Source: an uncultured Pseudobdellovibrionaceae bacterium (GTDB lineage: Bacteria > Bdellovibrionota > FAC87 > UBA2466). From it: 64,000 nucleotides of DNA. The notes under the pieces were generated by a model. It searched no databases and had not been told where the DNA came from. It worked only from the letters and a program-made list of their open reading frames with translations. Below are positions 20,449 through 56,649 of the stretch, piece by piece. Both the position numbers and the translations under genes were made by a program. Within the stretch, counting starts at the first letter, position 1, and each line of letters starts with the position of its first letter. Where the stretch lies: contig CAYNEF010000006.1 of the NCBI GenBank assembly GCA_964396165.1, positions 3,505 to 67,504 on the forward strand. The letters are read 5' to 3'.

Positions 20449-20565
20449 AGTTTTTTTCCTTAGTACCAGATTAGAGTAGTCATGACTGCAGTGACACATA
20501 CTTAATTGGCAGGAAGTTAATACCAATAGTGGTCGTATACTGAGTAAATACGGTGCTTCGATTTA

Positions 20566-25415: not shown

Positions 25416-26375
25416 ATGAATAAAACATTGAAATCTCAATTGAAAACGGAATTTGCTGGATTAATTATTGTCTTTTCTTTACATTGCGCCATCTCCAAGA
25501 CCGAAAGGGCCCCCAAAATGAAAAGCTTTTTAAGTATTTTAGTGTGTCTTCTGTTAGTGAGTGCTTGCGGCCAATCCATCAAGCAAGATTTAAATACTGA
25601 ACCTGCAAACAGAAACATAATTGATGGGCAAAAAATCTTTTCAATGAATGCAAAAGATTTTGGCCCTCTATTGAAGCTAACCTTTAGCGGAAATGACAAT
25701 TACACTTATTCCTGCTCAGCTGTACACATTGGCCATGGTTGGATACTGACGGCAAACCATTGTATCGCAATGCCTATCGCACGCTATGGCGGTATGCCTT
25801 ACATCACCGTAAATCAATACGCGCGTCGCTCGACAATCGGGCCTATTTCAGGACAAAATTATAAAGCCTACTCCCCCAAAGCAACGTCTAAGAGAGTGTT
25901 ATCTGAAGAGGGGGTTTTCTATAATCTTCAGAACCCGGATTTAACGGCTATAAAATTGGATGCGCAATTTTCTAACCAAATTGCCCTTAATCCCAAGGTA
26001 ATTATTCCGACAGAAGAGTTGAAAAAAGAAGAAGAATCAAAACTTCATATCGCAGGTTTTGGCGAAACATACCCACATAGAAAAGACTATGGAGTACTGA
26101 ATGTGGCTCTTGCCTATCTTTGGTTCAGTACAGACGATTTTTTTCAGCTGACGCAGCTGGACTCAAATAATAAGCATTATGCAGCAGCACTGCCAGGAGA
26201 TTCGGGCGGCCCTCTTTTTACAAGAAACGCGAAGAACGAAATCGTCCTCTACGGCATTTTTTCTACGTACAACACGATGGTTGTGGGCGGTAAACCCTCT
26301 ACGGATAATTCCTATACACGTACAGAAAAAGGTGCTGGTGCTGCTTGGTTGAAACTTTTAATGGAAAGAATCTAG
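25416..26375 (+). CDS. secreted trypsin-like (S1) serine protease
   Basis: Triad contexts LTANHC (His), DLTAIKLD (Asp), GDSGGPLF (Ser). A strong AGGAGG RBS precedes 25416; the internal ATG 25518 (MKSFLSILVCLLLVSACGQ, lipobox) is an alternative start. Confidence 0.8.
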   Translation: MNKTLKSQLKTEFAGLIIVFSLHCAISKTERAPKMKSFLSILVCLLLVSACGQSIKQDLNTEPANRNIIDGQKIFSMNAKDFGPLLKLTFSGNDNYTYSCSAVHIGHGWILTANHCIAMPIARYGGMPYITVNQYARRSTIGPISGQNYKAYSPKATSKRVLSEEGVFYNLQNPDLTAIKLDAQFSNQIALNPKVIIPTEELKKEEESKLHIAGFGETYPHRKDYGVLNVALAYLWFSTDDFFQLTQLDSNNKHYAAALPGDSGGPLFTRNAKNEIVLYGIFSTYNTMVVGGKPSTDNSYTRTEKGAGAAWLKLLMERI

Positions 26376-26432: not shown

Positions 26433-27404
26433 CTACTGGTTTGCAAATTTGTCTGTGGCAGAGACAAGCGCTTTTGAAATTCCATGCTCAAATGCGGAGT
26501 GGCCTGCATCAGGTACTAATACAAATTCCGCCTCAGGCCACTTACGGTGCAGAGCCCAGGCGCTATCCATCGGACAGACGACATCGTAGCGTCCTTGCAC
26601 AATCACTGCGGGGATATTTTTTAGCTTGATCGCATCTTGTAGTAACTGATCATCCGTTTTTAAAAAGCCTTTGTTGATAAAATAGTGGCATTCGATCCTC
26701 GCAAAGGCTAGTGCGAACTCATCTTCTCCGTAATGCTCTACAAAAGAGAGATCAGGCAAAAGCTTGCTGGTAGATCCTTCCCAAACACTCCACGCACGCG
26801 CAGCATCCGTCTGTACTTTTTTATCAGGGCTTGTCAGGCGCTTGTAGTACGCTTTTACAAAGTCATTTCGTTCTTCGACAGGAATGGCGTTTTTATATTC
26901 TTCCCATGCGTCGGGATAAATAAAGTCACAGCCGCCCTGGTAGAACCAATCGATTTCTTTTTTTCGAAGCAGAAATATTCCGCGTAAGACTAACTCAGTG
27001 ACTACTTCGGGGTGCGTTTCGGCATAGGCTAGCGCAAGCGTGCTTCCCCACGAACCACCAAAAACCTGCCACTTACTAATAGAGAGATGCTTTCTTAATT
27101 TCTCCATGTCTTCTACTAGGTGCCAAGTCGTATTTTCTTCTAACGATGCGTACGGAGTGCTTTGCCCGCAACCTCGCTGATCAAATAAAATGATACGGTA
27201 TTTATCCGGATTAAAAAAACGGCGCATTTTAGGTTCGGTACCGCCCCCAGGACCTCCGTGCACAAATACGGCAGGTTTTCCTTTAGGGTTACCTGATTCT
27301 TCATAGTAAATTTCATGAAGGGAGGAAACTTTGAGTCTTCCTGTGTTGTAAGGTTTGGGTTCTGGATACAGCCAACTTTGTGGATCTTTTTGTAAGTCTA
27401 ACAT
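26433..27404 (-). CDS. pip: proline iminopeptidase (S33)
   Basis: 323 aa; HGGPGGG, GGSWGSTLAL nucleophile elbow, C-terminal GHSAFE. Confidence 0.9.
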   Translation of the reverse strand: MLDLQKDPQSWLYPEPKPYNTGRLKVSSLHEIYYEESGNPKGKPAVFVHGGPGGGTEPKMRRFFNPDKYRIILFDQRGCGQSTPYASLEENTTWHLVEDMEKLRKHLSISKWQVFGGSWGSTLALAYAETHPEVVTELVLRGIFLLRKKEIDWFYQGGCDFIYPDAWEEYKNAIPVEERNDFVKAYYKRLTSPDKKVQTDAARAWSVWEGSTSKLLPDLSFVEHYGEDEFALAFARIECHYFINKGFLKTDDQLLQDAIKLKNIPAVIVQGRYDVVCPMDSAWALHRKWPEAEFVLVPDAGHSAFEHGISKALVSATDKFANQ

Positions 27405-29726: not shown

Positions 29727-31511
29727 GTGAAAACTCTACTTATTCTTTTGTGTCTATCTATCAATCTTATTGCTGAAGAAGAAGCGCGCGAAATTGACGC
29801 TGTTGTTTCGCTGGAAACCAAAGCTGAAAAAACCGAATTCAAAGAAACCGGTCGCTATGAAGAAGTCGCAAAGCTTTGTAAGGCATTTGTAAAAGCATAT
29901 CCCGAAAAAGTGAAGTGTCACAGTTTTGGCAAAACTCCAGAGGGAAGAGAAATGCTTTCGTTGGTCGTTTCTGGAGATGGCACGCTAGAACCTGAAACTG
30001 CAAAAGCAAAGAATAAACCTGTGCTCTTTTTCCAAGGGGGGATTCACGCAGGCGAGATTGACGGAAAAGATGCGGGCTTTCTCTATCTGAAAGAATTGCT
30101 AAGAGGAGAAATAAACGACAGCCCTCTTAAACAAACTGTAATGGTTTTTGTTCCCGTTTTTAACATCGACGGGCACGAACGCTTTGGAAAAAATCAACGT
30201 CCCAATCAGCGGGGGCCCGAAGAAACGGGCTGGCGTACGACAGCACAAAATTACAATTTAAACCGTGATTATCTAAAAGCAGATGCGCCGGAAATGCAGG
30301 CAATGATTTCCTATTTAAATGAATGGGATCCGATTGTGTATGTGGATTTACACGTCACAGATGGCGCGGATTTTCAGCCGGAAATTTCTGTCATGATTAA
30401 TCCTGCACTGAAAGGGGAAGAACCCCTGCACCCTTTAGCAAAAAGTTTTTCTGATTCAGTGATAAAAAAAATGAATGCCAAAGGGCATTTGACGTTGGAT
30501 TTTTATCCCTCTTTCGTAAAAGATGACGAACCTGAAACCGGTTTTGAACTAGGGGTTGCACCGCCTCGTTTTTCTCAAAGTTATTGGGGCGCAAGAAACA
30601 GAATCGGTATTTTAGTTGAAACACATTCGTGGAAAGAATACCCAGTGCGGGTAAAAGCGACACGCGATGTTCTTGAATTTATCGCAGAAGAAACAGCACT
30701 GAAAGGTGCGACCTGGAAAACCGCGGCAGCGAAGCTCGACGAAACTTCCAAAAAACGAGGTGGAAGCGAAGTCGTTCTTACTTACGAAGCGACAAAAAAA
30801 AGTAAGACAATTGATTTTGCTGGTTATCGCTATGAAAGAACTGCTTCTCCCATCTCTGGACAACTGGTCACAAAATACTTTCCAAAAGAACCTGTAGTTT
30901 GGAAAGTGCCTTTTTTTGATGAAGTAGTTCCGAAGCTAACTGTGTACGCACCTAAAGGGGGGTATCTGATTTCTCCGGCATTTCAGGATATGGTTGAGAA
31001 GAAATTAAAAATCCATGGATTGGAATATAAGGTGTTAACCAATCCCTTGTCGCAAGCAGCTGTGGAGCGTTTTAGCCCCAAAGAATTTGAGTTTGGAAAG
31101 TCCTCTTACGAGGGACACATGACTTTAAAACTAACCGGGAAGTGGGAGCTAGCACGGGAAAATTTACAAAAAGGGACACTTTTTGTCCCCATTTCGCAAA
31201 GCAAATCAAGATTGGTATTACACCTGTTTGAGCCTGAGGCGCCAGATTCCTTGCTCAGCTGGGGCTTTTTTAACACCGCTTTTGAAAAGAAAGAGTACAT
31301 GGAGGCATACGTAATTGACGTGGCTGCCAAGGAAATGCTGGCGCAGGATGCGGCACTTAAAGCAGAGTTTGAAGCTAAATTAAAATCTGACCCGGTTTTT
31401 GAGAAAGATCCTGATAAGCGCTTTGAATTCTTTCACAAGCGCCATCCTTCTTGGGATACGCGTTTTGGTGTCTATCCTGTGCTGAAAAGTGCAACACTCG
31501 ATTTTAAATAA
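29727..31511 (+). CDS. secreted M14-family metallocarboxypeptidase-like protein
   Basis: 594 aa; GTG start; signal peptide; GGIHAGEIDG (HxxE) and NIDGHER, later LHVTDG. Confidence 0.7.
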   Translation: MKTLLILLCLSINLIAEEEAREIDAVVSLETKAEKTEFKETGRYEEVAKLCKAFVKAYPEKVKCHSFGKTPEGREMLSLVVSGDGTLEPETAKAKNKPVLFFQGGIHAGEIDGKDAGFLYLKELLRGEINDSPLKQTVMVFVPVFNIDGHERFGKNQRPNQRGPEETGWRTTAQNYNLNRDYLKADAPEMQAMISYLNEWDPIVYVDLHVTDGADFQPEISVMINPALKGEEPLHPLAKSFSDSVIKKMNAKGHLTLDFYPSFVKDDEPETGFELGVAPPRFSQSYWGARNRIGILVETHSWKEYPVRVKATRDVLEFIAEETALKGATWKTAAAKLDETSKKRGGSEVVLTYEATKKSKTIDFAGYRYERTASPISGQLVTKYFPKEPVVWKVPFFDEVVPKLTVYAPKGGYLISPAFQDMVEKKLKIHGLEYKVLTNPLSQAAVERFSPKEFEFGKSSYEGHMTLKLTGKWELARENLQKGTLFVPISQSKSRLVLHLFEPEAPDSLLSWGFFNTAFEKKEYMEAYVIDVAAKEMLAQDAALKAEFEAKLKSDPVFEKDPDKRFEFFHKRHPSWDTRFGVYPVLKSATLDFK

Positions 31512-32997: not shown

Positions 32998-34548
32998 ATG
33001 AATAGTAACTTCTTAAAGTTAGGCTTGCTTGGATTTTTCTGGGCAAGCCTTTCTTTTTCCGCTGTTACTTGGGAAGCGGCAGTTGTATTTCTTGGCACAA
33101 AACTCCCAGAAGATTACCAGGCCGATATTGATCGCAATATATTAGATCTCGCAAGAAGTAATCCGAATGACACTTTTCATTTAAGCATTTTTCGTGAATT
33201 TGAAAACCGTTCTGTCACGTACTACGTCGATTCCAAATCACCGAAATTGCAGTCGTGGCGACCACTCTTTCAATCTCAAATCATTGCAGACATCCAAGTT
33301 CCTGGCGAATTGATAGTGGAAACGCGAGAACCGGACGATTTAAGTATTCTGAGTCGCAATGTAAAACTCGCTGATTTTTTTCAGCGCGCTTACCAAAACA
33401 AAGATGCAAAGCGCATCCTGCTTCTTTATGATCACGGGCAGGCGTTTGAAGGGTTGGGCTCCGGCGTCACTTTATTGGAATTAAAAAAACAACTGACTGA
33501 TAATTTACCCGCACGTGCCGGTAAGCCTCTGGATATCCTTTGGATGGATGCTTGCTTCATGGGAAACCTGGAGAGTATTTTTGAATTAAGAAAAATTTCA
33601 AAGCTCATCATTGGTTCCGAAGAAGCTGAATTTTCTGCCGGCGCCCCTATGGAAATGTTTAAAAGCTTGTCTTACGGCGATCGTGACAGTGCGAGAGTTG
33701 CGTTCGACTTTGCTGAGCGCTTTATCGAGTCGTATTCCTATTCCCTTCAGGGCAGTAAAAGAAAAGCCATATTTTCTAGCTCAGCCACCATTAGTGTAAT
33801 TGATACCGCTGGACTAGATACACTTGCAGAAGAGATTACGAAGTTAAAACAAGCAATCGGGAGTCTGTCCAAAGAGCAGATAAGTGAGATCCGAAAAGAT
33901 GTTCCCGCAATTTCTATGGATCGAAAGGATCTGGTTGATTTAGGATCTTTGCTACTTAAAATGTCAAAAAGCCGACTATTTTCAACGAATTTAAAAATAC
34001 GCGAAGCCTTATTTAATTTAAGAGTGCTAATGGATTTGGGAAAGCCAAGTAAAACCCTTACCAATCCCCGAATCGTCATTGATCCAGATTCAAACCGTTC
34101 TCACTCCTTTGTATTCGGATACAACTATTGGAAAAACGGGGACGAAACAGATAAGGATACTTTGGAAAAAATTCCTCAAGAATTAATGGATTCTGTTTCT
34201 TTTGTTTCGGGACCCATGCGTAAAAAATGGCCAAAGAGACAAATGGCAAACCTTATGTACTTCTCTCCCTTTTCTGTAGGGCTGAATGTTTTTAGTTATT
34301 ACGCCGTGACTGATAAGGGAGACAAAGTACTGTCGTCAACCAAGACTCTTAAACGAGAAAGAGACTTTACTTTGCTTTCGCGTGATACGAGAACAAACCC
34401 GATCTTATTATCGGGTTATACACAAGGCATTGGCAAGAATGCGGAACGCTATACGGGATTGAGCATTGCGGATCCAACGATAGGACTACCTTCATTCGAT
34501 TATACCGATTTGGAATTCTATAAAGAAACTGGCTGGACAAACTTTTAA
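32998..34548 (+). CDS. secreted C11 (clostripain-like) cysteine peptidase
   Basis: 516 aa; signal peptide; RILLLYDHGQAFEG (catalytic His context) and DILWMDACFMGNLES (DACxM Cys context) about 45 aa apart. Confidence 0.7.
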   Translation: MNSNFLKLGLLGFFWASLSFSAVTWEAAVVFLGTKLPEDYQADIDRNILDLARSNPNDTFHLSIFREFENRSVTYYVDSKSPKLQSWRPLFQSQIIADIQVPGELIVETREPDDLSILSRNVKLADFFQRAYQNKDAKRILLLYDHGQAFEGLGSGVTLLELKKQLTDNLPARAGKPLDILWMDACFMGNLESIFELRKISKLIIGSEEAEFSAGAPMEMFKSLSYGDRDSARVAFDFAERFIESYSYSLQGSKRKAIFSSSATISVIDTAGLDTLAEEITKLKQAIGSLSKEQISEIRKDVPAISMDRKDLVDLGSLLLKMSKSRLFSTNLKIREALFNLRVLMDLGKPSKTLTNPRIVIDPDSNRSHSFVFGYNYWKNGDETDKDTLEKIPQELMDSVSFVSGPMRKKWPKRQMANLMYFSPFSVGLNVFSYYAVTDKGDKVLSSTKTLKRERDFTLLSRDTRTNPILLSGYTQGIGKNAERYTGLSIADPTIGLPSFDYTDLEFYKETGWTNF

Positions 34549-38176: not shown

Positions 38177-38722
38177 ATGAAACAGGCCTTATTATTTAAA
38201 GATAAGAAAACATCACTAGAGTTTGGTGGAAGCCTTTTAAAGGGAAAAAGAAAAGGCAAAAGGCCCATTACACTTTCAAAGCCTTTACATCTAGTGATGC
38301 GAAGTGATGTAGCGGTAGGAAAGTTATCACTTAGACGCTTTCAGCTTTTGATAAATGTCAGACTTGAGAGTTATGCTTTAAAGTTTCATATCAAAGTGTA
38401 CAAACTAGCTATTAATAGAAATCACCTGCATCTTTGCATCCAAGGGCAGGACAGAGAAGAAATAGCTTCTTTTTTAAAAGTCTTTGCGGGGATTCTAGCG
38501 AAGAAAATCATCGCGCATTCCAATTTGAAGATAAAGAAGTTTTGGACGGAAAGGGTCTTCTCTCGCGTTGTGCAGTGGGGACAAGACTTTAGAGGAGTCA
38601 AAGCCTACATCTATCAAAACATCCTAGAAGCAAGTGGGGCCGTCCCCTACAAGCCGAGAAAGAGGAGAGCGAAAAAGCATCCGAGTGCATCGAGATTGCC
38701 GCGGCCTTCGGCCTCGCAATGA
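38177..38722 (+). CDS. REP-associated tyrosine transposase (RAYT), IS200/IS605-like HUH/Y1 family
   Basis: 181 aa; HUH motif NRNHLHLCIQG, catalytic Tyr context VKAYIYQNILEA, basic N-terminus; flanked by REP copies, and the last codons and TGA stop lie inside a REP. Confidence 0.75.
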   Translation: MKQALLFKDKKTSLEFGGSLLKGKRKGKRPITLSKPLHLVMRSDVAVGKLSLRRFQLLINVRLESYALKFHIKVYKLAINRNHLHLCIQGQDREEIASFLKVFAGILAKKIIAHSNLKIKKFWTERVFSRVVQWGQDFRGVKAYIYQNILEASGAVPYKPRKRRAKKHPSASRLPRPSASQ

Positions 38723-45297: not shown

Positions 45298-46365
45298 TTA
45301 AAGCTTAGGCATCCAGGTACCTTCAGTACCTGCAAGACAGTTGTCTCTCAATTCTTTCAATTCTGCGAGAGTAAGGCCTTTTGTAGCAAGCCCTTTAACC
45401 ATTTCGTTATTTGCAATTTCGTGAGCTTCCCATACTGTGCTGCCGGATTTAATCGCAGCAAGAAATGGATTTGCAAATAATTGCGCTGTGACAGCAAGAC
45501 CATCGACTACGCTCTGAGCGTCTTTACCTTCTTTTAGGTATTCTTTGATTTTGCTGATTTGTCCTTCGAGTGCTGTTGGATTTCTGTGGTACAGCATCAT
45601 CAGGTTAGCAAGCATATCTTTTCCCATGTTTTCTTTTCCGGGAAGATTGTTTGGCACTTTCGCAATTGCAGCCATGATGTCAGCATCAGAAGTGAATTTT
45701 TTGATAGCTTCTTTTGCTGCTTCTAAAGACTGGCCTCTAGCAAGAGTTTCTTCTCCAATAACTACCAGGGCTTCTTTTAATCTGTCGACTTGAGAAGCTT
45801 CCAATCCTTTGATTCCATCTACTAGTTCGTTGATGAACTTATTCACGGATGGGTTAGTAGATTTGATAGAGACTTTTCCATCTACACCTTTTTCAGTCAC
45901 TTTCAATACGTCTTCTACTTTTTTGAAAGTGCTTTCGAATTGCTTCTTGAGTTTTAATTCGGCTTTTTTCTCTTCAAGCTTTTGTCGGGCAATTTCATTA
46001 GTGAGAGTATCTTCTGTGGCTTCCGCTCTTCCTACTTTGCCTGCAACTTCTGCAGCTTTTTGAGACGCATCCACATCATGTGGGCCGCGAGCTTTTACAA
46101 CAGGGGCACTTCTTTCTTTGTCTTTATCTTGCTCACGTTCGCGAACTTCTACTTTAACCCCTTTTTCTTCGGCGCTATTTGCTCCTTTTTGAACTTTTTC
46201 TCTTACTCTTTCTCTTTCTTGAGCAGGAGTGACACCTGGTTGTTCTTCTACTTTACCTCCGCGGCCTTTGCTAACTTCTACGGCATTTACGGTGGGCGCG
46301 ATAAGCGCTAAGGATGCGAGTACTGCCAACACGGTTGTTTTATTTTTCATGTTCAAGGGTTTCAT
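45298..46365 (-). CDS. secreted K/E-rich hypothetical protein
   Basis: Start set at ATG 46365 (AGGAG RBS 11 nt upstream; MKPLNMKNKTTVLAVLASLALIAPTVNA signal peptide); no motif. Confidence 0.6.
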   Translation of the reverse strand: MKPLNMKNKTTVLAVLASLALIAPTVNAVEVSKGRGGKVEEQPGVTPAQERERVREKVQKGANSAEEKGVKVEVREREQDKDKERSAPVVKARGPHDVDASQKAAEVAGKVGRAEATEDTLTNEIARQKLEEKKAELKLKKQFESTFKKVEDVLKVTEKGVDGKVSIKSTNPSVNKFINELVDGIKGLEASQVDRLKEALVVIGEETLARGQSLEAAKEAIKKFTSDADIMAAIAKVPNNLPGKENMGKDMLANLMMLYHRNPTALEGQISKIKEYLKEGKDAQSVVDGLAVTAQLFANPFLAAIKSGSTVWEAHEIANNEMVKGLATKGLTLAELKELRDNCLAGTEGTWMPKL

Positions 46366-46891
46366 TTTATTTTTATCTCCTAAGATTAAATTTTGCTTCA
46401 AACTTGTGCCCACACTTTGAAATAGCAAACTACGTACCGTTAAAAAAAGTGGGGGAAGACCAGTTGTATACGACGAAAAAGCAATACAAATATTTTATAA
46501 CAGTTTCATTCTTTTGTGCGTATTTTGTTAATAGGTACAAGTACTTCACTTGTATTTTAGAGCGATTCTATTTTTGCAACGCGCAACAACTCTACAGCAT
46601 ATTTGCTGTCGAAACTTTTTACAGTAATAACCAAAGTGACGAATGTTAGTATCATTACCTTTTATTTATGGATATCAATAGTTTAAGTGTTTAATCTGCA
46701 GAAACACGAAAGTATCGACCATTAGTTTTGCATGTTGTACTGCGTAAAACATTTTGGCGATTGATCATTTTCCTCATGAGCATACTGAAATCACATATAA
46801 AAAAAATGGACTCAAGATTGTGGTGATTGTGAATACTGCCGGCATACGCATTGCACAATAAGAGGCTAAGAATCTTATTTGAGGTACATAC

Positions 46892-49800
46892 ATGCGCTTT
46901 CATACTCGCTTACTAACATATGCGTACATCGTATTATCAGCCATTTCATTTACTGCGTTCGCTGCAGAAGCAGAATGCAAAGATGGCCTGTGCAGCCCAG
47001 CTTTATTAAATTTAAACCAACCAGGCAAAAAGGATGAAAGTCCGTTTGAAATCAATACGGTTCTTGGGAAAAGAAAACACGTTGAGTTTACTGATGAGAC
47101 GTGGGAGTTGCCAGTATTTTCTGAAGATGGCAGTGGACGATCTTACCCTAAAGAATGTTCTGCTCAACAAACGTACAAAGTCAGAACGCCTTTTCCTTTT
47201 GCAAAGCCAAAAGACAGATCAAAAGAACCCCTTCAAATAATGCTGAATCCCAGTCAAGATCCTTTGGTCGACCACTTGAGAGATTTGAAAGAACAAGACG
47301 AAGCAAAGTACCGCTATGAACACCCAACGGTTGAGCAAAAACTAAAAAGAGAAGCAGAACTTCTCCGTGACTTTGCCATAGCATTACAATGCCCACCCGA
47401 TTCTCACTTCATTCAAGATGTAATGACAAAACTTGCAGATTTGCAAAGAATCGAAATCATGCAACACACTCTGCTTTTAGATCGCAAAAATAGAACCGTC
47501 GGTTCATCCAGTGAATTAATCGATGCGATGATTACAGCAATTCCTCTTTTTCAAATTAAATCAAACTCTGTACGCGGAGCATGGTCAAATGCCATTACCG
47601 CGCAGGCAGAGCGCAACTTGGCTTTGGCCGACAAGATCAAAACGTCAGGATTTGGTGGCTACCTGGAACACAGAATTTTGCCGAACGAACCGATGACATT
47701 TAAAAGCCTAGAACACGAGATGAAAAATTACGATCAAAGGATGTACGATGAGTTCCAAGTAAAAATTGCTGAGCTCAATACAAAACATCGTACTACTGCA
47801 GAAGTTGATCCTACATCCCGCATTAAACTACTTGCGCATAATTTGGGACAAAAGCTACAAGCCTTAAAAACAAAGCAAATGAACCCCAATTTTACTGAAG
47901 ACGATTATGCTTCTCTAAAACTTTTAAACGGGCTTATTTCCCAACTATTTCACCAAGGTGATGAGTTGTTGGGCCAGCTGACCATGGCAGAATTACGCTT
48001 ATTATTGCACGGAGAAAAATTTAATTTGCCAGATAGTAATAAGGACCAAAAATTACTGGACCTTGCAAAAAGTTTGATGCCTGCAAAAGCAAATAATGTT
48101 GAAAAAAATATGTTGATGAATCTCGGCGATATCGCGGGATTTGTGAACCAGGTTGTCGCACAATCAGGCGGGCCGCTTTTGACACAAAAAATGTCGGTGT
48201 TTTCTTTCTCCCCTGATGAATCTATCAGTATGAGAAAGTTCCTCATTGCGCAGATTGAAAATCTACATATCAACCGGTCCTCACCATTACTAAGCGAAGT
48301 GGATGTTTCAAATCCCAGTAAAAGATTAGCTGCTAAAGCCGCATTAGAAAGAGTTTTAGATTTATTGGATAAAGGCGCACCTGAGTACGAATCGTCTGAC
48401 GAACTTCCCTTGGTAACGGATTATGCCTATGACCACTGGACTACTGCGGAAAAGTTAAATCATGAACGCAAAGGACGCCTTAAAGCTGCCGATCTTGTCA
48501 TGAAAAATTCGCCTATGAGCAAAGAGCAAGCGATAGCCACAGTTGATAAAGAAGTAGATTCGCTTGCAAAGATTGCGCAAAAATGGACTGGATATCCTAT
48601 CACGTCTGAAAACTACCGTGATCTGTACGCGCTGCCACAAGCTTTTCGACAGGATCTGATCGTGGGACTTTCGAACGCAAAAAACAAGAAAGAGGCAGAC
48701 CACGTGCTTGCTGCTGTCTTGAAACCTAGTGTGGATTCCTATTCAGACGCACTTACTTCCTCCGGCAAGAATACCTCCACCATACTTGATTCTATTGACA
48801 AAACATTTTTTGCTCACGGGCTTACTCGTAATATTCCAGGAGATCTATCCAAGATGACCTTGGAGCAGAAAAATGCACTGGCTGATTGGGCAGTGACTCA
48901 GCTTTCTGTGCCATCAACAAAAAAAGGGGAAGTGAAATTGAGAAACTTGCCCCCTGACGTACATTCTGCGCTTAACCTGCTTGTAAATTTACGCGAAGAG
49001 TGGGGACATACAGATAATGACTTGAGCTTACTGAGAACTTTTCGTGGTAAAGATGGCGTGAGAGGACTTGCGAGTTTCAATGTCGGTACTTATCTCGCTG
49101 AAAAAGAAGCAAGAAAGACAGCATCTAAAGAAAATATTGGTTTAGTGGATGAGTTAGTTAAATATGCAGATACAGAAGGCTTTGCTATCCCTAAAGCATC
49201 GCAATTAAGACTTCTTGGACTTGAAAACACGATTTTAACGATGCTTCAACACTTAAAAGGGATTGCTAAATCCAGAGGAATTCAAAAAGAATTTATTCAA
49301 TTGATGGTAGCCGCAGATCCCCTTGAAGTGACAAAGTTCTTTCAAAGACACGAGCCACGGCTGCTTAGTCTTTTAATCGAAAAAAATATTCTAAAGATTT
49401 CTGATGCTGAATTGGCAGCTAATCCAGCCGCTGCTCGTGCAAAAGAAGTGATGGAATTTGAAAAGAATGCAAAAAACTCCTTTGTGTTGGAAGCTCAAGG
49501 CACTCCCTTGCCTGAAGACAAACAACAACAAATCAATGCACAGTTTGATTTCCTCGGAAAACAATCTGCTCATCAGGAAGTTGCCGCAAATTTACAGATG
49601 CATCCAGGCTTGTTAAAAAGCCGCATTGACATGCTCAAGAAATCGGAAGAAGAAGGTAAAAAAATAGGGGCTGCCGATAAAAAGTTTCTTGAAGACTATT
49701 CCAGCCAAATGGAAGAACTTAGTCTTACACATCAAGAAAATATCATGAATAACTACCGCAAGCGTGCCGCGGAAGACCTTCTGACAAAAGCAAAATCTCC

Positions 49801-52800
49801 AGATGCTGTCAGGAAACAATTAGAAGGCATTTTAAAACCTGTCTTTGGAACGGATGCAGAACTAAATTCTGCTATTGATGGAATCATTGCATCTCGTAAA
49901 GACGAACAGATGATCACAAACAAATTGGCAGCTGAAATCGGCACTTTTTCTATTGGAAAAATCATTCCTAAAATCGGATTGAATGATGAGCCTTTGACGC
50001 AAGATGAACAAAATCAAATCGATGCGTTTGTTAAAGAAATACCAAAACTGCGCGACGGTTTATTAACAGAAAAATTGAACATCAACCGGGATATCAATGA
50101 AAAAGAATTACAAAGCGCGAAGGAAATTAACGAGGATGCCGCACGCATTTCCGAACATGGTCGCGAAAAAGACGATCATGGAATCATTCGTTACTGCCAA
50201 TGTGACGAATGTAAAGCACGCAAGTTGACACCTCGCCAAAGAGCGGAAGAAGCAAAAGCTAAGCTTGAACAGATGTCCTCTCGTTTTGACAAAATAAAAG
50301 AGGATCTCGATGCGGAAAGAACGGCTTTGCTTTCTGAAGTAAATAACAAGGAAGCGGCCTTGAATGAAATGTCTGAAGTGATCAAACAGACATACATGAA
50401 AAACTCTCTGATTGAACTATCGGCACGTGCCAAAAAAATGGTAGAGGACAAATTAGCACCGGAACTTGTTCAGTCAGGCCTTAAGGGAGATGAGCTTGAA
50501 AAACGCAAGCAAGTTTTGATTGGTTTAACACAAAACGCATTAATTGAACGCTTGCGCTTACAGCAATCAAGTGATTCTGCACAAGAGCTTCTCCATCCTA
50601 ATTTAGGTGGTGACGCACAAGATTCTCTTCTTGCAAAAAAAGTAGAAGAAACTTTGAAAAAAGAAATGACCTCGGGTGAAACCGCTATCAAAATGAACGA
50701 GGAACATGCAGTAGCCCAAATCCAAAGTTCCAAAAACAAGGCGAGAGAAATCCAAAGCAAGAACGATGCAGAAGTAAAAAGACTGCTTACTATCTTAAAA
50801 CCACTCGATATGAAATTTGATGGAGAGTGCAATTTTGACAACGCAAAGCTTTGGTTGCTCAGCGAAACCAATCCTCCTACACCAACTCCTTGGAGCGACA
50901 CTCGCCATCCTCTTTCAAGTGATGCTAAAAAATTAATCGAAGCCTTGCACGAAATTGGAAAATATTCGATTTCCAAAACAGATTGCTACGATTTCTTAGT
51001 GGCAAAAACGAAAGACATGGTATTGGAGCGAAAACAATTAATCGATAACAGACAAACGGTAGCTACCCAAGATGGATTGAAAGCAAAGCGTAATTCGCGT
51101 TTGATCGAACTTTTTGAAAGCGGAGAAGGGGCCATGATCCAAAATCCCTACGCAATGGCTGGCTTGACTGGTTTAAAACCTGAGGAAGGTGCAGAGGTGA
51201 TCTTTTGGAATAAAGAACCGCTGCAAAAAGCTGCTCAACAAGCAATTATAGATAATGAAAAAATCATCGAAAATGAATGGTATCAGGATTATGTCAATGC
51301 AGAGCATTTTAAACGACGCAATATGAATATGGTTCAGGGGTTTGTGGAAAATGCACGTGATGTAGGTTTAGCCAGTGCGTACGATAGAACTCTTGCGACA
51401 AAAGAAAGAGAGTCTTATTGGAGTTATCCTTTCTGGTGGGCGCTTCGCAAAGGGGAGCAAATTACACCTAACTTCGTAGGCAACAGTATTGATTATCTCA
51501 GTCGTAGCAGTACGAAGAATGTAGATAACGTAGTAGAAATGTCCGGCGGTCAGAACGCGTACTACAGCAGAGGTGAAGAACTACAAAATAAAGTTTACCG
51601 TAACGCCCGCATTTTACAGTCCTCTGGAGATGTTTCTGTAACAATGGATGATTACCTATTTGGTAAGCAAGCAACAACTGCGGCTCATGCCTCTGACATC
51701 GAATTGCAAAAAAATAAGAAAATGTCGGAACAGTGGAATGCCCTTATCGCAGGGGATATGAATCACTATGCGCTGACAGAAGATATCGCCTGGAGCGCCG
51801 CAATTACTGCTGCTTCAATGGGTACTAGTGCTTATATTCAGACTCTTGTAAACGCCGGTAGATTTGCAGAAGCAGCTAAAACGCTGCAAATGATCCAAAA
51901 CTGGGACAAATTATCCAAGGCAGAAAGAGCTAGCATCACCTTAAAAGCTTCTTTGCAGGCTCGTGCTCTTGGTATGTTTACGACAGTGGGAGATGCAAGC
52001 ACTCTTGCGAATTCTGGCCTAAGAGCAGTAGGCAATGGAAAACTGGTAAACGGAATGCTTCACGGAGCTAAGGCCGGTATTCCCATGGTGCTTTCGGAAG
52101 TGGGCTACCACCATTTCAAAGAAAATATGGATGAAGAAATCCATAAAAAAGTTTTGGAAGCTCAAAAAACAGGTAAACAAGTTACCTTGACTGACTGGGA
52201 TTATAAAAAGTTGTTTATTGATGCAGACAAAATCAACAAATTCCTGATTGCACGACAAGGACTGAATCAGGATGGAACAGCACTTTCTGAAATAGAAGAT
52301 CAGGACTTGGAAGTTTCCAAGCATTTGGAAGTTCCTTATGCATTCATGGATAAAAATGGTGATGGAAAAGTCGACGCCACTTTCGTTCCTCAAGTAGAAG
52401 ACTATGGTAAATACATACAATCCTTTCACCATGGGTACAGACTGTTCGGTATTTCCAAGTCTTTAATGCCAAGTGGTGCAATTGCACGCAGCTTGGATGC
52501 GATAAAAGCACCGAAAGCCCTACAAGGTTTTGCAGAACTTTATGCCGCAGCAGAAACAAACAATATATTTGATAATTACAACAGTGCACACGGTCCCAAT
52601 AAAGATTTCTGGAGCTGGGACTCTTTCGCCGACAGACAAATCAATAACGTTCACACTGCTGTTTGGGGATTAACCGGAGCAGCTACTCAAAACGTAAGAA
52701 GCGTTCCGATGCAGATCGCAGTTGGATACGGAGTTAACGGTGGTGTAAATGTACTCAGTACCGCAGCAGATAGATTGCAAAACGGATGGGGCATGACAGA

Positions 52801-54769
52801 TGATCCAGAAAAAGGATTGTTTAGTCGTTTGAGTGATTACTGGAACAACGGCTACACTGTTTTGGGTGATGGCGGAATTGAGAGAGATATTGGTAAAGCA
52901 ATTTCCCATAAACTCGCAAGTACTGCAGCGATGGATTTATGGTTCAGCGCAGGCCACTCTTTGATGAATTCAAAGCAGACCCGTGCTACTAACGAAGCAC
53001 GTGGGACCTTACAAAAATTCTTAGCAAGCAACAGAGAAACGAAAGTAGTTGCTGTTGAAGAAGCACATAAGCTCGACATTGCTAGCAATGTAACCAAACT
53101 CTCAGAAATGCCTCTGATTCCTGAATACGTTAAAAACCCAGTGTTTGATAACAGCAAAGAAGCCAATCTTCGTGCAAAACCTGACATGAATAAGCGACTG
53201 ACAGGCGACGCACTTCAAACAAGAAGAACGCTTGAATACTTCGCAGAAAAAAGCGGCTTAACGCCGAAGTTAAATCCTGGTGTGGTAGATCGCATGGTAA
53301 AAGAATACCAAAATGCGAAGAGCGCTCCGGATTCCGCTACACGCAACCAAACGCTTGCTCAATTTGTTGCTAAATTTAAGTCTAAAGAATTAGCAGCTGA
53401 AAGAGAAAAAATCTATAATTTGCCATCTATAGATGCGCAACTGTTAGGTGGAGCATTGATCGATAAACCAGGAGAAAGAGACAACAGCATTGTGGCGAAC
53501 ACTCAAGTGGCTCGCGATAGAAAAAATCTGCAAATGACTCTTCCACACCGTCCGGAACTTTACATGAGTCTTGAAGTGGGCAAACTCGATAACAGATTCA
53601 GATATCTCGTAAATGCAATCGGTCGTTTACCAGCTTCACAAATCAAAGAAGAGCACCAGAATAAATTTTCGAATGAGTTTGAAGCGTACAGAACAAAAAA
53701 TCCTGGTAAGACGATGATGGATTACTTAATGGATTTCAAAGTGGCAAATAACTACGAAGGTTTTACGCCACGTGATTTCAATTGGTCCTCACCTACTGTT
53801 AACAAATGGGCGAACACAATTGAGCGCACAAGACAGCAAAGAAAAGACAAAGCTGAAGCACGTGAACTTGCCGAAGCTGAACGCGCAGGTACAAAGCAGG
53901 CTTTTGCTCCTACAACAGTAACAAAAGGTACTACTAATTCCAACGTACCTTCTTACACATACAATGCTGAAGGCGTGAAGGGTCGCATTGAAGGTTCTGA
54001 TGGAATGGTTGTGAGATCTGGAGATGGGCATATCGTATTTGCTGTGGAATCCTGGGGACAAGGTTTCATTCCAGGTACAAACGGAAATGGGCATGCTGTT
54101 GTGAAAACACCTCAAGCCGTTGTTGAAGGAACTATTGAACCTGTCACGACTGTAAACGGTGGAACTACAAAATACCCACAATTCAAAATCGTTGGTAAAA
54201 ACGGTGAAACGTTAGCAGCTGTCGACTTTAAAATCGCACCAGATAACAACGGAACAATTGCGGAAATCAGAGTTGCCAATACGAATGAAACAGCCAAAGT
54301 AGCATTACAGGAAAAACCGAAAGTGTTCCGCTCACAAATGGCTCCAAGTTTGGCAGCTGTTTATGAAGGAATTGCTCTCGAAGAACCTATTCCCAGAGGC
54401 ACTACACGTGTGAATGAAACCGGAAAATATACTACGGGCACTGTGCTGAGAAGCGAACCGGGTGTAGAAGGAAACAGAAAAACTGCAGGGTATGAAAGTT
54501 CTGACGGGCTTATTAAACTTGTCTGGAAAATTTCTGCAAATCCAAAGGCGGATCAATTAATCACTGTAACGATCCCTGAAGGAGAAACTTTTACGGCAAT
54601 TGCGGCGCCAAAAACGACTCAGAGCGGTGCAAGTGGAGGTGAAGAACAAGTACTTCTTGATGCCACAACCCGTCAGGAAATCGGAAAAATTACTTTCAGA
54701 AAAGGAAATAAAAACAGAATAATAGTAAAAATGAACGATGGCAGAAATGTTTCTTCGTTCATCCAATAA
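46892..54769 (+). CDS. giant secreted protein (2,625 aa), no recognisable family
   Basis: Uninterrupted 7.9-kb ORF; GAGGT RBS; signal peptide ...SFTAFA/AE; long helical K/E/L-rich N-terminal 1,600 aa; Gly/Ala-rich hydrophobic segments; beta-rich C-terminal about 280 aa. Confidence 0.85.
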   Translation: MRFHTRLLTYAYIVLSAISFTAFAAEAECKDGLCSPALLNLNQPGKKDESPFEINTVLGKRKHVEFTDETWELPVFSEDGSGRSYPKECSAQQTYKVRTPFPFAKPKDRSKEPLQIMLNPSQDPLVDHLRDLKEQDEAKYRYEHPTVEQKLKREAELLRDFAIALQCPPDSHFIQDVMTKLADLQRIEIMQHTLLLDRKNRTVGSSSELIDAMITAIPLFQIKSNSVRGAWSNAITAQAERNLALADKIKTSGFGGYLEHRILPNEPMTFKSLEHEMKNYDQRMYDEFQVKIAELNTKHRTTAEVDPTSRIKLLAHNLGQKLQALKTKQMNPNFTEDDYASLKLLNGLISQLFHQGDELLGQLTMAELRLLLHGEKFNLPDSNKDQKLLDLAKSLMPAKANNVEKNMLMNLGDIAGFVNQVVAQSGGPLLTQKMSVFSFSPDESISMRKFLIAQIENLHINRSSPLLSEVDVSNPSKRLAAKAALERVLDLLDKGAPEYESSDELPLVTDYAYDHWTTAEKLNHERKGRLKAADLVMKNSPMSKEQAIATVDKEVDSLAKIAQKWTGYPITSENYRDLYALPQAFRQDLIVGLSNAKNKKEADHVLAAVLKPSVDSYSDALTSSGKNTSTILDSIDKTFFAHGLTRNIPGDLSKMTLEQKNALADWAVTQLSVPSTKKGEVKLRNLPPDVHSALNLLVNLREEWGHTDNDLSLLRTFRGKDGVRGLASFNVGTYLAEKEARKTASKENIGLVDELVKYADTEGFAIPKASQLRLLGLENTILTMLQHLKGIAKSRGIQKEFIQLMVAADPLEVTKFFQRHEPRLLSLLIEKNILKISDAELAANPAAARAKEVMEFEKNAKNSFVLEAQGTPLPEDKQQQINAQFDFLGKQSAHQEVAANLQMHPGLLKSRIDMLKKSEEEGKKIGAADKKFLEDYSSQMEELSLTHQENIMNNYRKRAAEDLLTKAKSPDAVRKQLEGILKPVFGTDAELNSAIDGIIASRKDEQMITNKLAAEIGTFSIGKIIPKIGLNDEPLTQDEQNQIDAFVKEIPKLRDGLLTEKLNINRDINEKELQSAKEINEDAARISEHGREKDDHGIIRYCQCDECKARKLTPRQRAEEAKAKLEQMSSRFDKIKEDLDAERTALLSEVNNKEAALNEMSEVIKQTYMKNSLIELSARAKKMVEDKLAPELVQSGLKGDELEKRKQVLIGLTQNALIERLRLQQSSDSAQELLHPNLGGDAQDSLLAKKVEETLKKEMTSGETAIKMNEEHAVAQIQSSKNKAREIQSKNDAEVKRLLTILKPLDMKFDGECNFDNAKLWLLSETNPPTPTPWSDTRHPLSSDAKKLIEALHEIGKYSISKTDCYDFLVAKTKDMVLERKQLIDNRQTVATQDGLKAKRNSRLIELFESGEGAMIQNPYAMAGLTGLKPEEGAEVIFWNKEPLQKAAQQAIIDNEKIIENEWYQDYVNAEHFKRRNMNMVQGFVENARDVGLASAYDRTLATKERESYWSYPFWWALRKGEQITPNFVGNSIDYLSRSSTKNVDNVVEMSGGQNAYYSRGEELQNKVYRNARILQSSGDVSVTMDDYLFGKQATTAAHASDIELQKNKKMSEQWNALIAGDMNHYALTEDIAWSAAITAASMGTSAYIQTLVNAGRFAEAAKTLQMIQNWDKLSKAERASITLKASLQARALGMFTTVGDASTLANSGLRAVGNGKLVNGMLHGAKAGIPMVLSEVGYHHFKENMDEEIHKKVLEAQKTGKQVTLTDWDYKKLFIDADKINKFLIARQGLNQDGTALSEIEDQDLEVSKHLEVPYAFMDKNGDGKVDATFVPQVEDYGKYIQSFHHGYRLFGISKSLMPSGAIARSLDAIKAPKALQGFAELYAAAETNNIFDNYNSAHGPNKDFWSWDSFADRQINNVHTAVWGLTGAATQNVRSVPMQIAVGYGVNGGVNVLSTAADRLQNGWGMTDDPEKGLFSRLSDYWNNGYTVLGDGGIERDIGKAISHKLASTAAMDLWFSAGHSLMNSKQTRATNEARGTLQKFLASNRETKVVAVEEAHKLDIASNVTKLSEMPLIPEYVKNPVFDNSKEANLRAKPDMNKRLTGDALQTRRTLEYFAEKSGLTPKLNPGVVDRMVKEYQNAKSAPDSATRNQTLAQFVAKFKSKELAAEREKIYNLPSIDAQLLGGALIDKPGERDNSIVANTQVARDRKNLQMTLPHRPELYMSLEVGKLDNRFRYLVNAIGRLPASQIKEEHQNKFSNEFEAYRTKNPGKTMMDYLMDFKVANNYEGFTPRDFNWSSPTVNKWANTIERTRQQRKDKAEARELAEAERAGTKQAFAPTTVTKGTTNSNVPSYTYNAEGVKGRIEGSDGMVVRSGDGHIVFAVESWGQGFIPGTNGNGHAVVKTPQAVVEGTIEPVTTVNGGTTKYPQFKIVGKNGETLAAVDFKIAPDNNGTIAEIRVANTNETAKVALQEKPKVFRSQMAPSLAAVYEGIALEEPIPRGTTRVNETGKYTTGTVLRSEPGVEGNRKTAGYESSDGLIKLVWKISANPKADQLITVTIPEGETFTAIAAPKTTQSGASGGEEQVLLDATTRQEIGKITFRKGNKNRIIVKMNDGRNVSSFIQ

Positions 54770-54784
54770 TGTTAAACTGTTGGG

Positions 54785-55936
54785 ATGAAAAAAATCCTCT
54801 TTTTGATTACGTTGGTTATTGCAGGTTGTGCAACACAGCAACTGCAAAAAACAGAACTGCCGGCAAATTCTACGACTATTCTATTCTCTGCGAATAGAAA
54901 TTTGGAATTTGAACCTTGTGGTTGTTCGATGTCTCCACAAGGCGGTTTGGTCAGAGAGTGGAACTATCTTCAGGCAGTTAAAAAGAGTAATCCCTCTGCC
55001 TTTTATCTTGTGTCTGGCACTTCATTTTATCCAGAGTTAGGTCAATACGAATCAAAAGAAAAAAAGAGTTACTTTTTAAAAGCAGGGTATATCGCCGAGG
55101 CTTTTAAAAAAATGGGAGTGGATGTAGTGGGACTCTCCGATGAAGATTTGCGTTTGGGACTTTCTTCTTTGAAAAAACTCGCTTCTCAATACCACTTGGA
55201 TTTTATTTCTACGAACATTATAGACAAAAAAACAAAGGCTCCTCTGTTTTCACCTTATAAAAAAGTAAGCCGTAACGGTGCTACTTTTTATATTTTGTCA
55301 CTCACATCGGATGAAGGTGTTTTGCCCGCTAAATCTGGTGTGATGATTCAGTCACCTGAAATTGCTTTGCAAGAGTGGTTGGGGAAAATTCCGCAAGATG
55401 GATACGTCGTTGTGCTCTCTACCCTTTCTAAAATTGATAGGGATCCGTTAGTGCAGAAATTTACTGGCGTGCATCTATTTTTGGGGGGGCAGAGAAGAGA
55501 AGATATTCCAGGACGCTTTACACAAAATACGGTTTCCACTTTATTTGCTAACCAAAGCGGAGGAGGAAAAAGTATTTATCAAATCACTTTATCTTCTCCT
55601 GCACCCAAAAAGAGATTTTATAATGCAAACATTGTAAGAGAATATGCGGAGTTAAGGACATATTGGGAGGAAAACCTCGAGACTTACCAAAGAGAAATCG
55701 CTTCCAAGCAAAACGAAAAAAAACGAGCTTCTTTACAAGCCAGTATCGAGCAGCTTCGTACAAACCTGAAATTGTCGAAAGATATTATTGTAAATCCGGA
55801 CGAACAGTCTGTTTTGTATGATTACAAACTTGTGGAATTGGGTCCCTCCTTCGATAACGAAGATGCTACACAAAACCCTATGTACGACTTGATAGAGCGC
55901 AAGAAAGAAAGCGTCAGGCAGTCGATGTTGCGATAG
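54785..55936 (+). CDS. lipoprotein resembling a 5'-nucleotidase/metallophosphatase N-domain with metal ligands replaced (EPCGC motif)
   Basis: 383 aa; lipobox VIAGC; ILFSANRNLEFEPCGC, GGLVRE, VVGLSDEDLRLG and DFISTNIID mirror the order of UshA-type motifs but lack DxH/GD/GNHE ligands; 15-nt gap after the giant ORF. Confidence 0.4.
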   Translation: MKKILFLITLVIAGCATQQLQKTELPANSTTILFSANRNLEFEPCGCSMSPQGGLVREWNYLQAVKKSNPSAFYLVSGTSFYPELGQYESKEKKSYFLKAGYIAEAFKKMGVDVVGLSDEDLRLGLSSLKKLASQYHLDFISTNIIDKKTKAPLFSPYKKVSRNGATFYILSLTSDEGVLPAKSGVMIQSPEIALQEWLGKIPQDGYVVVLSTLSKIDRDPLVQKFTGVHLFLGGQRREDIPGRFTQNTVSTLFANQSGGGKSIYQITLSSPAPKKRFYNANIVREYAELRTYWEENLETYQREIASKQNEKKRASLQASIEQLRTNLKLSKDIIVNPDEQSVLYDYKLVELGPSFDNEDATQNPMYDLIERKKESVRQSMLR

Positions 55937-56124
55937 GTAGTCATTTAACCCTTAAAAGGCATCCTCACAATTTTCTCACTCGTTTTAGCTAACGTGTCTT
56001 CACAATCTTCACAATTTGGTAGGTGAGCGCGCCAAAACTCTAAATTGGAAGCGTGCTCCTATTCCCACATAATGTATACGAGATGAATACATTATTACGA
56101 AATTCAATATTCCAGGAGAAGCTC

Positions 56125-56649
56125 ATGAAACGAATGAAAATGAAACACCTCAGACTGACTTTGTTTTTGGTAACGATTCTAAACTACCCGCTTGCCTTTG
56201 CAGGAGAACCAGCCAGCCGTACGGGCAGTGTGGGCGCGGCCCAGGCAATCCAAAATCAGAGTGCCATTCGCTACGGTAAGATAGCGGAAGAAGAATTGAA
56301 AGCAGCACAAGATGCAGATAAGAAAATGAAAAATGCTACAAACAAGGCAGATGTAGAGAAGTATAAAAAAGAGAGAGACGAACATCTGAAGAAATATGAA
56401 CAGGCCTCTGGACAAGCTATGAGTGACATTGCGTACGAACGTAGTAACAGCGGTATTAAGGACTTGCTTCGTACAAATGAAACACCCAATATTGATCTTA
56501 GCACGACTCCTGGTGGCTTGCCTGGGCCGCATAACCCATTGCCCTCTGGTAACAGTCCACCTACTACTGTTCCCCCCCAATTCGGACGTTTAGAATCCGT
56601 AGATCTTTTTCCTCCAAACTTTCCGGACTTAATTGATTTAGGCAAGTAA
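56125..56649 (+). CDS. secreted protein with K/E-rich middle and Pro-rich C-terminus
   Basis: Start set at ATG 56125 (AGGAGA RBS); signal peptide MKRMKMKHLRLTLFLVTILNYPLAFA. Confidence 0.55.
   Translation: MKRMKMKHLRLTLFLVTILNYPLAFAGEPASRTGSVGAAQAIQNQSAIRYGKIAEEELKAAQDADKKMKNATNKADVEKYKKERDEHLKKYEQASGQAMSDIAYERSNSGIKDLLRTNETPNIDLSTTPGGLPGPHNPLPSGNSPPTTVPPQFGRLESVDLFPPNFPDLIDLGK

Follow-up and report, generated by a model that had tools for sequence, protein, structure and literature searches.

Very large exported proteins that largely escape annotation have been described from predatory Omnitrophota, where they are proposed to serve in adhesion and envelope attack; these giants exceed 30,000 amino acids (aa), carry many transmembrane regions and SecA-DEAD domains and are encoded near type II secretion system (T2SS) genes (West-Roberts et al., bioRxiv 10.1101/2023.11.21.568195). 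Here we describe a protein of 2,625 aa encoded in a 64,000-nucleotide (nt) stretch of DNA from an uncultured Pseudobdellovibrionaceae bacterium (contig CAYNEF010000006.1, positions 3,505 to 67,504; the whole stretch is hereafter called the window), for which the Omnitrophota giants are the closest conceptual parallel, being likewise very large, unannotatable, apparently exported and found in bacteria thought to be predatory. However, the window protein has none of their extreme size, numerous transmembrane regions, SecA-DEAD domains or proximity to T2SS genes. As far as profile searches reach, it founds a family that has no name and is very rare, three members having been detected.

Toxins of the TcdA/TcdB and Mcf type are comparable in size, and their region order can be read as effector, translocation and C-terminal binding parts; these large clostridial and Mcf-type toxins are not known to have a classical Sec signal peptide. 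The giant protein differs from them in having short and mild hydrophobic segments and no CROP match, and neither a glucosyltransferase and/or cysteine-protease domain nor a TcdA/TcdB pore region was found in the Pfam, NCBIfam and PDB profile searches. Polymorphic toxins of the CdiA, Rhs and MafB type share with it a long conserved N-terminal part followed by a variable tail, but the giant protein lacks FHA, Rhs and pre-toxin motifs, a toxin domain and a small immunity gene, and its chassis appears all-alpha in a low-confidence model whereas theirs is beta-helical. For RTX/MARTX proteins we found no Gly/Asp nonapeptide repeats, no HemolysinCabind match and no type I secretion system (T1SS) among the scanned window open reading frames (ORFs), and a Sec signal is present; for Bap/Ig-like repeat adhesins there was no Big, Cadherin or FN3 match. 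Self-BLASTP and Tandem Repeats Finder detected no internal repeats, in agreement with the initial annotation, made from the sequence alone, which had noted the absence of RTX-, Bap- or Ig-type tandem repeats. The 12-strand PF03797 barrel with aromatic terminus that defines the classical autotransporter (T5aSS) was not found either. Two features are shared with the classes compared, namely the Sec signal, which is generic, and a C-terminus that varies as in polymorphic toxins.

The gene and its signal peptide

The gene and the elements at its start are as follows.

46892..54769, + strand: coding sequence of the giant protein, a single uninterrupted ORF of 2,625 aa plus stop (7.9 kb)
46881..46885, + strand: Shine-Dalgarno-like GAGGT, 6 nt 5' of the ATG, read from the sequence
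46892..46963, + strand: predicted Sec signal peptide, aa 1-24, consisting of MRFHTR, LLTYAYIVLSAISFTAF and AFA, with predicted signal peptidase I cleavage between AFA and AE

Inspection of the sequence gave no alternative start upstream of the ATG, and at the base composition of the window the probability of meeting no stop in 2,625 codons is about 1e-71, so that the uninterrupted ORF with a GAGGT ribosome-binding site reported initially holds. Relative synonymous codon usage agrees with that of 29 other window genes (r = 0.89), and the GC content of 41.7% matches that of the window (42.4%), which argues for a native gene without recent acquisition. The region 46892..54769 is a genuine native protein-coding gene. 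In the Logan assembly of run SRR12487046, a 7,047-nt contig is identical to window positions 49454-56500; because it possibly derives from the same sample, it was not counted as a sibling genome.

Judged by the criteria for Sec export (10-20 residues in the h-region, small side chains at -3 and -1), the N-terminus shows on inspection a positive n-region, a hydrophobic h-region and an A-x-A site for signal peptidase I, followed by AEAE. Its Kyte-Doolittle hydrophobicity over a 19-residue window (KD19) reaches 1.77, and it is the sole 19-residue window of the giant protein above 1.2. An N-terminal signal peptide is found in all three family members, in the Logan homolog described below after its start had been moved to an upstream ATG. 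The Sec signal peptide of the initial annotation is thus confirmed by its three subregions and cleavage site and by the same feature in both homologs, and together with conserved cysteine (Cys) residues it supports export of the giant protein, into the envelope or further out.

A family of three members

We ran an exhaustive HMMER scan with residues 1430-2625 as query against 1.84 billion representatives clustered at 50% identity and obtained exactly two relatives, P0002 (E = 2.6e-33) and P0003 (E = 4e-7); every member of the family is a singleton cluster at 90% identity. P0002 is an unnamed protein of about 2,330 aa on the 7.3-kb Logan contig SRR21359023_293 (hereafter the Logan homolog), and P0003 is MBI4405314.1 from the groundwater 'Deltaproteobacteria bacterium' metagenome-assembled genome (MAG) NC_groundwater_1289, GCA_016207775.1 (hereafter the MAG homolog). 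The GTDB species representatives held no locus beyond the MAG locus, and none was found in JGI metagenomes or IMG/VR viral contigs. With tblastn, the giant protein had no match in 72,556 plasmids or in 50,697 phage genomes, and the PHROGs and PADLOC models came back empty, so that no PHROGs, PADLOC, viral-contig or phage-genome match places it in the class of large phage or defence proteins. A word-indexed protein search returned the whole protein itself only, and nothing for the C-terminal tile or for our alignment A1; these negatives are weak, because both homologs are in that collection and were missed. The probable reason is that this search scores only the 8,000 candidates that share most words, and its negatives for long K/E-rich queries call for caution.

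Searches for known families were equally empty. The whole protein had no Pfam or NCBIfam match, ten overlapping 400-aa tiles searched against Pfam at E <= 10 gave chance matches only (such as HJURP_C, Tad2-like, DUF1670 and EF-hand_5), and against PDB sequences neither phmmer with the giant protein nor hmmsearch with profiles of our alignments A1 and A2 gave anything below E 0.2. The earlier statement that the protein has no assignable family was upheld after all library and profile searches made, and these showed no characterised adhesin or toxin that matches over the full length, which had been raised there as a counter-case. At the sequence level the family is new, without detectable relation to any described one. 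No paralog of the giant protein was found within the window, and hhalign of alignment A1 against A2 gave no sign of an ancient internal duplication.

The Logan homolog was called from a GTG at contig position 323, but an in-frame ATG lies at 212 with no stop in between, and these additional 111 nt provide 37 codons encoding a canonical signal peptide, MKRHARTALFFLLLFSSPSFC followed by QEKK; the start was probably mis-called, and the ATG would be the true one. In the MAG, MBI4405313.1 (1,254 aa, with its own signal peptide) lies directly upstream of MBI4405314.1 in the same frame (HY537_14210 and HY537_14215), the two being split by a single TAA at JACQOU010000323.1 3899-3901, and joined they make one homolog of about 2,418 aa. 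Relative to the window protein the TAA lies at approximately aa 1241-1250, within a linker of low conservation, and the second ORF lacks both a signal peptide and an obvious ribosome-binding site. A designed two-gene version is a less likely origin of this TAA than an error in sequencing or assembly or a nonsense mutation of recent date. The initial annotation had named breakage of the ORF in sibling genomes as a counter-case; among the sequences found, one distant homolog is interrupted by this in-frame TAA.

The three proteins, none of them characterised, share a colinear chassis of approximately 2,300 aa, which begins with the signal peptide and reaches about residue 2325 of the window protein (pairwise matches cover aa 142-2298), and identity to the window protein amounts to 22% for the Logan and 18% for the MAG homolog. 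BLASTP with the Logan homolog aligns aa 460-837 (E = 4e-27) and aa 1553-2298 (E = 4e-44). Conservation is concentrated in five blocks (identity to the Logan and to the MAG homolog).

aa 1276-1350 (45% and 31%): Cys, LW..SE and PL..AK.LI, the motif running on to DCY at 1364-1366
aa 1651-1725 (41% and 12%): SAY(I/V)Q.LVNAGRFAEAA, starting from aa 1646
aa 1876-1950 (37% and 23%): FW and TA(I/V)WG motifs
aa 451-525 (39% and 16%)
aa 751-825 (32% and 32%)

In alignments A1 and A2, all three members keep Cys167 and the Cys of the DCY motif, which is consistent with disulfides in an oxidising compartment. Past residue 2325 the tails are unrelated and of very different length, about 290 aa in the window protein, 225 aa in the MAG homolog and 35 aa in the Logan homolog. 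The Logan homolog further carries a tandem duplication of a helical module of about 115 aa (residues ~359-466 and ~469-583, numbered from the ATG at 212; z = 17.7). The alignment sets this duplication against a shorter part of the window protein, but a profile of the module did not match the window protein at all and matched the MAG homolog only at chance level.

Regions of the giant protein

Along the window protein the following regions and motifs can be told apart, all on the + strand.

46964..50716, +: K/E/L/A-rich N-terminal region, aa 25-1275, colinear with both homologs, Cys167 invariant
50195..50212, +: CQCDEC cluster, aa 1102-1107, lineage-specific
50717..51001, +: most conserved block, aa 1276-1370, ...C..(A/G)(K/D)LW..SE...PL...AK.LI...G.....DCY, with the Cys pair C1313 and C1365
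51548..53866, +: conserved core, aa 1553-2325 (phmmer, BLASTP), predicted all-alpha (DSSP of the low-confidence model)
51785..51859, +: uncharged Ala/Gly/Ser-rich putative helix of 25 residues, aa 1632-1656, then the near-identical SAY(I/V)Q.LVNAGRFAEAA
52349..52375, +: DKNGDGKVD loop, aa 1820-1828, DxDxDG-like at most, a non-canonical EF-hand
52700..52768, +: second uncharged Gly/Ala/Val stretch of 23 residues, aa 1937-1959, KD19 0.91, with family-invariant Asn, Thr and Asp
53897..54766, +: putative beta-rich C-terminal module, aa 2336-2625, about 290 aa, unique to the window protein

The structural picture that can be drawn from these regions is a coarse one. Residues 1-1400 are enriched in K, E, L and A, and DSSP of the AlphaFold2 core model finds all helix, in helices of roughly 10-30 residues (low confidence). 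The chassis of about 2,300 residues may accordingly be described, with low confidence, as helical where it was modelled (aa 1291-2335) and rich in helix formers by composition in its N-terminal half. In the tail model a helix (about aa 2300-2332) precedes short strands that fall into two clusters, with approximately 85 unstructured residues between the clusters, and the last ~290 residues are rich in T, V, G and I. Given their low confidence, the models support only a helical chassis with a beta-rich tail. Thus the initial annotation of residues ~30-1600 as K/E/L/A-rich and helical stands in its composition, for residues 1-1400, while the helicity of the N-terminal half follows from composition only, and its beta-rich C-terminus agrees with the T/V/G/I composition and the short strands of the low-confidence model. 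Two similar sub-modules had also been read into this C-terminus; their alignment score of 35 is at chance level (shuffle mean 35.4 +/- 7.3). Opposite aa 2336-2625 the Logan homolog shows 91-100% gaps, and there is no detectable similarity to the MAG homolog, whose tail differs.

Two short motifs that had drawn attention are located as initially described, but their conservation is poor. The CQCDEC cluster lies opposite a gap in the Logan homolog and is unmatched in the MAG homolog (alignment A2), so that the conserved Cys cluster of zinc/iron CxCxxC proteins is not found in the family. The DKNGDGKVD loop has the counterparts DQDGDQKVD in the Logan and DENGKLKKQ in the MAG homolog, being kept in one of the two relatives. 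In a canonical EF-hand, a helix-flanked loop of 12 residues has Asp in first, Gly in sixth and Glu or Asp in twelfth place, and the Pfam score exceeds the threshold; in DKNGDGKVDATF position 12 is Phe, and Pfam EF-hand_5 scored the loop at E 0.18 and 11.8 bits, below its cutoff of 25.9.

The two Gly/Ala-rich stretches were likewise confirmed in their coordinates, although not in their proposed resemblance to membrane-insertion segments of toxins. The uncharged helix at aa 1632-1656 holds its position in all three members, with a KD19 of 0.96 in the window protein, 1.33 in the Logan and 1.55 in the MAG homolog; among the 19-residue windows of each protein, its hydrophobicity ranks first in the Logan homolog, second in the MAG homolog, where only the signal peptide exceeds it, and fourth in the window protein. 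The second stretch is unlikely to face lipid, because its Asn, Thr and Asp are invariant in the family. With such mild hydrophobicity (0.96 and 0.91 in the window protein) and with no TcdA/TcdB-pore, colicin or other toxin model matching, neither stretch appears transmembrane-like.

What the giant protein may do

The single most likely reading, which we hold only tentatively, is that the giant protein is a large adhesin or effector directed at the envelope or at other cells. Following export to the envelope or beyond, the Cys pair at about aa 1313/1365 would form a disulfide, and the conserved core of aa 1276-2325 would carry an activity common to the family. The Ala/Gly helix of the core (aa 1632-1656) would be buried or conditionally membrane-active, and the lineage-specific beta-rich tail of about 290 aa would serve in targeting or binding, each member having a tail that fits its own target. 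Action on the envelope of another cell or on the surface of the producer itself seems most likely because the genome is packed with signal-peptide hydrolases, and we do not think a central-metabolism enzyme likely. The initial annotation spoke of a secreted or surface machine, and nothing in our analysis supports the word machine.

Several points weigh against this adhesin or effector reading. There is nothing positive for any activity, binding partner or final location, and the hydrophobic helices are too mild to be called membrane-inserting. Secretion-system genes (T1SS, T2SS, TpsB, or type VI secretion system) were absent from the scanned window ORFs, and with none adjacent in the window a passage across the outer membrane is unsupported. 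AlphaFold2 with the three-sequence alignment gave an unusable model of residues 1291-2335 (mean predicted local distance difference test score, pLDDT, 36; predicted template modelling score, pTM, 0.24), the last 326 residues modelled alone were equally unusable (pLDDT 37), and Foldseek of both low-confidence models against PDB returned a best E of 0.35 with a template modelling score of 0.15, the other being E 2.9. Moreover, the family counts three sequences only, which leaves its 'conserved' residues weakly defined, and it is the gene content of just these 64 kb that suggests a strongly extracellular-digestive and possibly predatory way of life for the host.

Somewhat unlikely, yet to be taken seriously, is a structural scaffold that serves the producer itself in its periplasm or envelope, for instance by spanning the periplasm or organising a pole, and that is not directed at other cells. 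A Sec signal peptide with no outer-membrane secretion partner nearby would suit it, as would a long, apparently all-helical protein without enzyme motifs, a setting among chromosomal housekeeping genes (ferrochelatase, QueG, pst) and a probable operon with the gene of a lipoprotein. However, housekeeping scaffolds are usually lineage-wide, and here three members, all of them singletons, were found in the 1.84 billion representatives; their divergence is very fast (18-22% identity), their C-termini are interchangeable and the linkage to the lipoprotein is not conserved. The interchangeable C-termini, unrelated tails on a common chassis, bring to mind a polymorphic-toxin-like system in which a delivery chassis carries a swappable C-terminal toxin and a downstream immunity protein neutralises it. 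The gene located 15 nt downstream of the giant gene would fit such a scheme, but it encodes a 383-aa UshA-like lipoprotein and no small immunity protein, and in the MAG a convergent PIN/MazE pair takes its place; in addition, no toxin family matched either tail, no pre-toxin demarcation motif was seen and no orphan toxin/immunity cassettes are present, so that we give this reading little credence.

A large AB-type translocating toxin, as the initial annotation had hinted, would combine an N-terminal effector, a Gly/Ala pore region and a C-terminal receptor-binding beta domain. In its favour the regions follow one another much as they do in large clostridial and Mcf-type toxins, one uncharged helix is positionally conserved and the C-terminal beta module varies among the members. 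It is nevertheless improbable: no toxin, pore or enzyme model matched the 400-aa tiles at E <= 10, the uncharged runs span 23-25 aa with KD values of at most 0.96 where the hydrophobic region of TcdB-type toxins extends over about 170 residues, the second Gly/Ala stretch keeps invariant polar residues and the Logan homolog is almost without a C-terminal module. A classical autotransporter, with signal peptide, giant passenger, alpha-helical linker and C-terminal beta-barrel, is close to refuted, even though the Sec signal and the low-confidence model, which puts about 290 beta-rich residues after a helix at aa 2300-2332, recall its layout; aa 2226-2625 match neither PF03797 nor any other barrel at E <= 10, the protein ends in ...SSFIQ without an aromatic beta-signal, the predicted strands have 4-9 residues in two clusters ~85 unstructured residues apart, and the C-terminal module is absent from both homologs. 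Hardly any weight falls on a decaying or non-functional ORF, either. The in-frame TAA of the MAG homolog, with a second half devoid of signal peptide and obvious ribosome-binding site, would speak for decay, but the window gene has 2,625 intact codons that chance would scarcely leave open, its codon usage is native, conservation is colinear in three genomes with signal peptides intact, and an identical sequence occurs in the Logan assembly of SRR12487046 (possibly the same sample).

Should the protein indeed work at the surface or on other cells, the few architectures known among giant bacterial effectors and adhesins would gain a new class that is structurally unexplored, and there would be a way into the biology of an uncultivated lineage apparently rich in secreted hydrolases. 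Going further, and as a speculation that we regard as rather unlikely, the three proteins could represent a new class of giant Sec-exported all-alpha effectors of uncultivated, probably predatory 'deltaproteobacterial' lineages that attack envelopes, the conserved core with its conditionally membrane-active helix doing the damage and interchangeable C-terminal modules the targeting, in an architecture unrelated to RTX proteins, autotransporters, Tc toxins, large clostridial toxins and polymorphic toxins. The case also illustrates how far sequence 'dark matter' reaches, with a three-member family of a 2,600-residue protein in about 15 billion predicted proteins for which structure prediction fails.

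Genomic neighbourhood

The features of the surrounding window that bear on the giant gene and its host are listed first.

54785..55936, + strand: downstream lipoprotein, 383 aa, lipobox LIAGC, UshA-like, PCGC motif
5408-6805 (-), 10521-11456 (+), 18886-20526 (-), 25416-26375 (+), 26433-27404 (-), 29727-31511 (+), 32998-34548 (+): hydrolase loci

The lipoprotein matches NF041198, 'UshA-like (seleno)protein PCGU', at E 8e-41 and 140 bits, below the cutoff of 275, over model positions 5-368 of 519, and in its PCGC motif Cys replaces the selenocysteine of the PCGU family. The giant gene and the lipoprotein gene are likely co-transcribed, although the linkage is not a trait of the family, because in the MAG the PIN/MazE toxin-antitoxin pair, and no lipoprotein gene, follows the homolog. 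Flanking genes are ordinary chromosomal ones, encoding a ferrochelatase, an aldehyde dehydrogenase, QueG, a major facilitator superfamily transporter and a PstS-like phosphate-binding protein; the ORFs that come after the last are taken, by position, as the rest of a pst operon, the ATPase ORF alone having an ABC_tran match.

The hydrolases, spread over 30 kb, comprise an S28 peptidase, two M14 carboxypeptidases, a patatin-like, a trypsin-like, an alpha/beta hydrolase and a C11 member, and most of those inspected have a signal-peptide-like N-terminus. Orphan proteins are numerous as well, mostly starting with a signal peptide, and the window includes a lipopolysaccharide heptosyltransferase gene; jointly with the hydrolases these would point to a Gram-negative organism of extracellular-digestive, possibly predatory habit.

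The giant gene and the lipoprotein gene are flanked by genes for K/E-rich, family-less proteins with signal peptides at 45298-46428 (-) and at about 56120-56649 (+), the former having a sub-threshold PHA_gran_rgn match only. An Rfam scan of the window found one tRNA and nothing else. A second large orphan is encoded at 6926-10336 (-), a protein of 1,135 aa with a signal peptide and without Pfam, NCBIfam or PADLOC match, and an IS200-like Y1 transposase domain (PF01797, E = 1.9e-7) lies at 38177-38722 (+), approximately 8 kb upstream of the giant gene.

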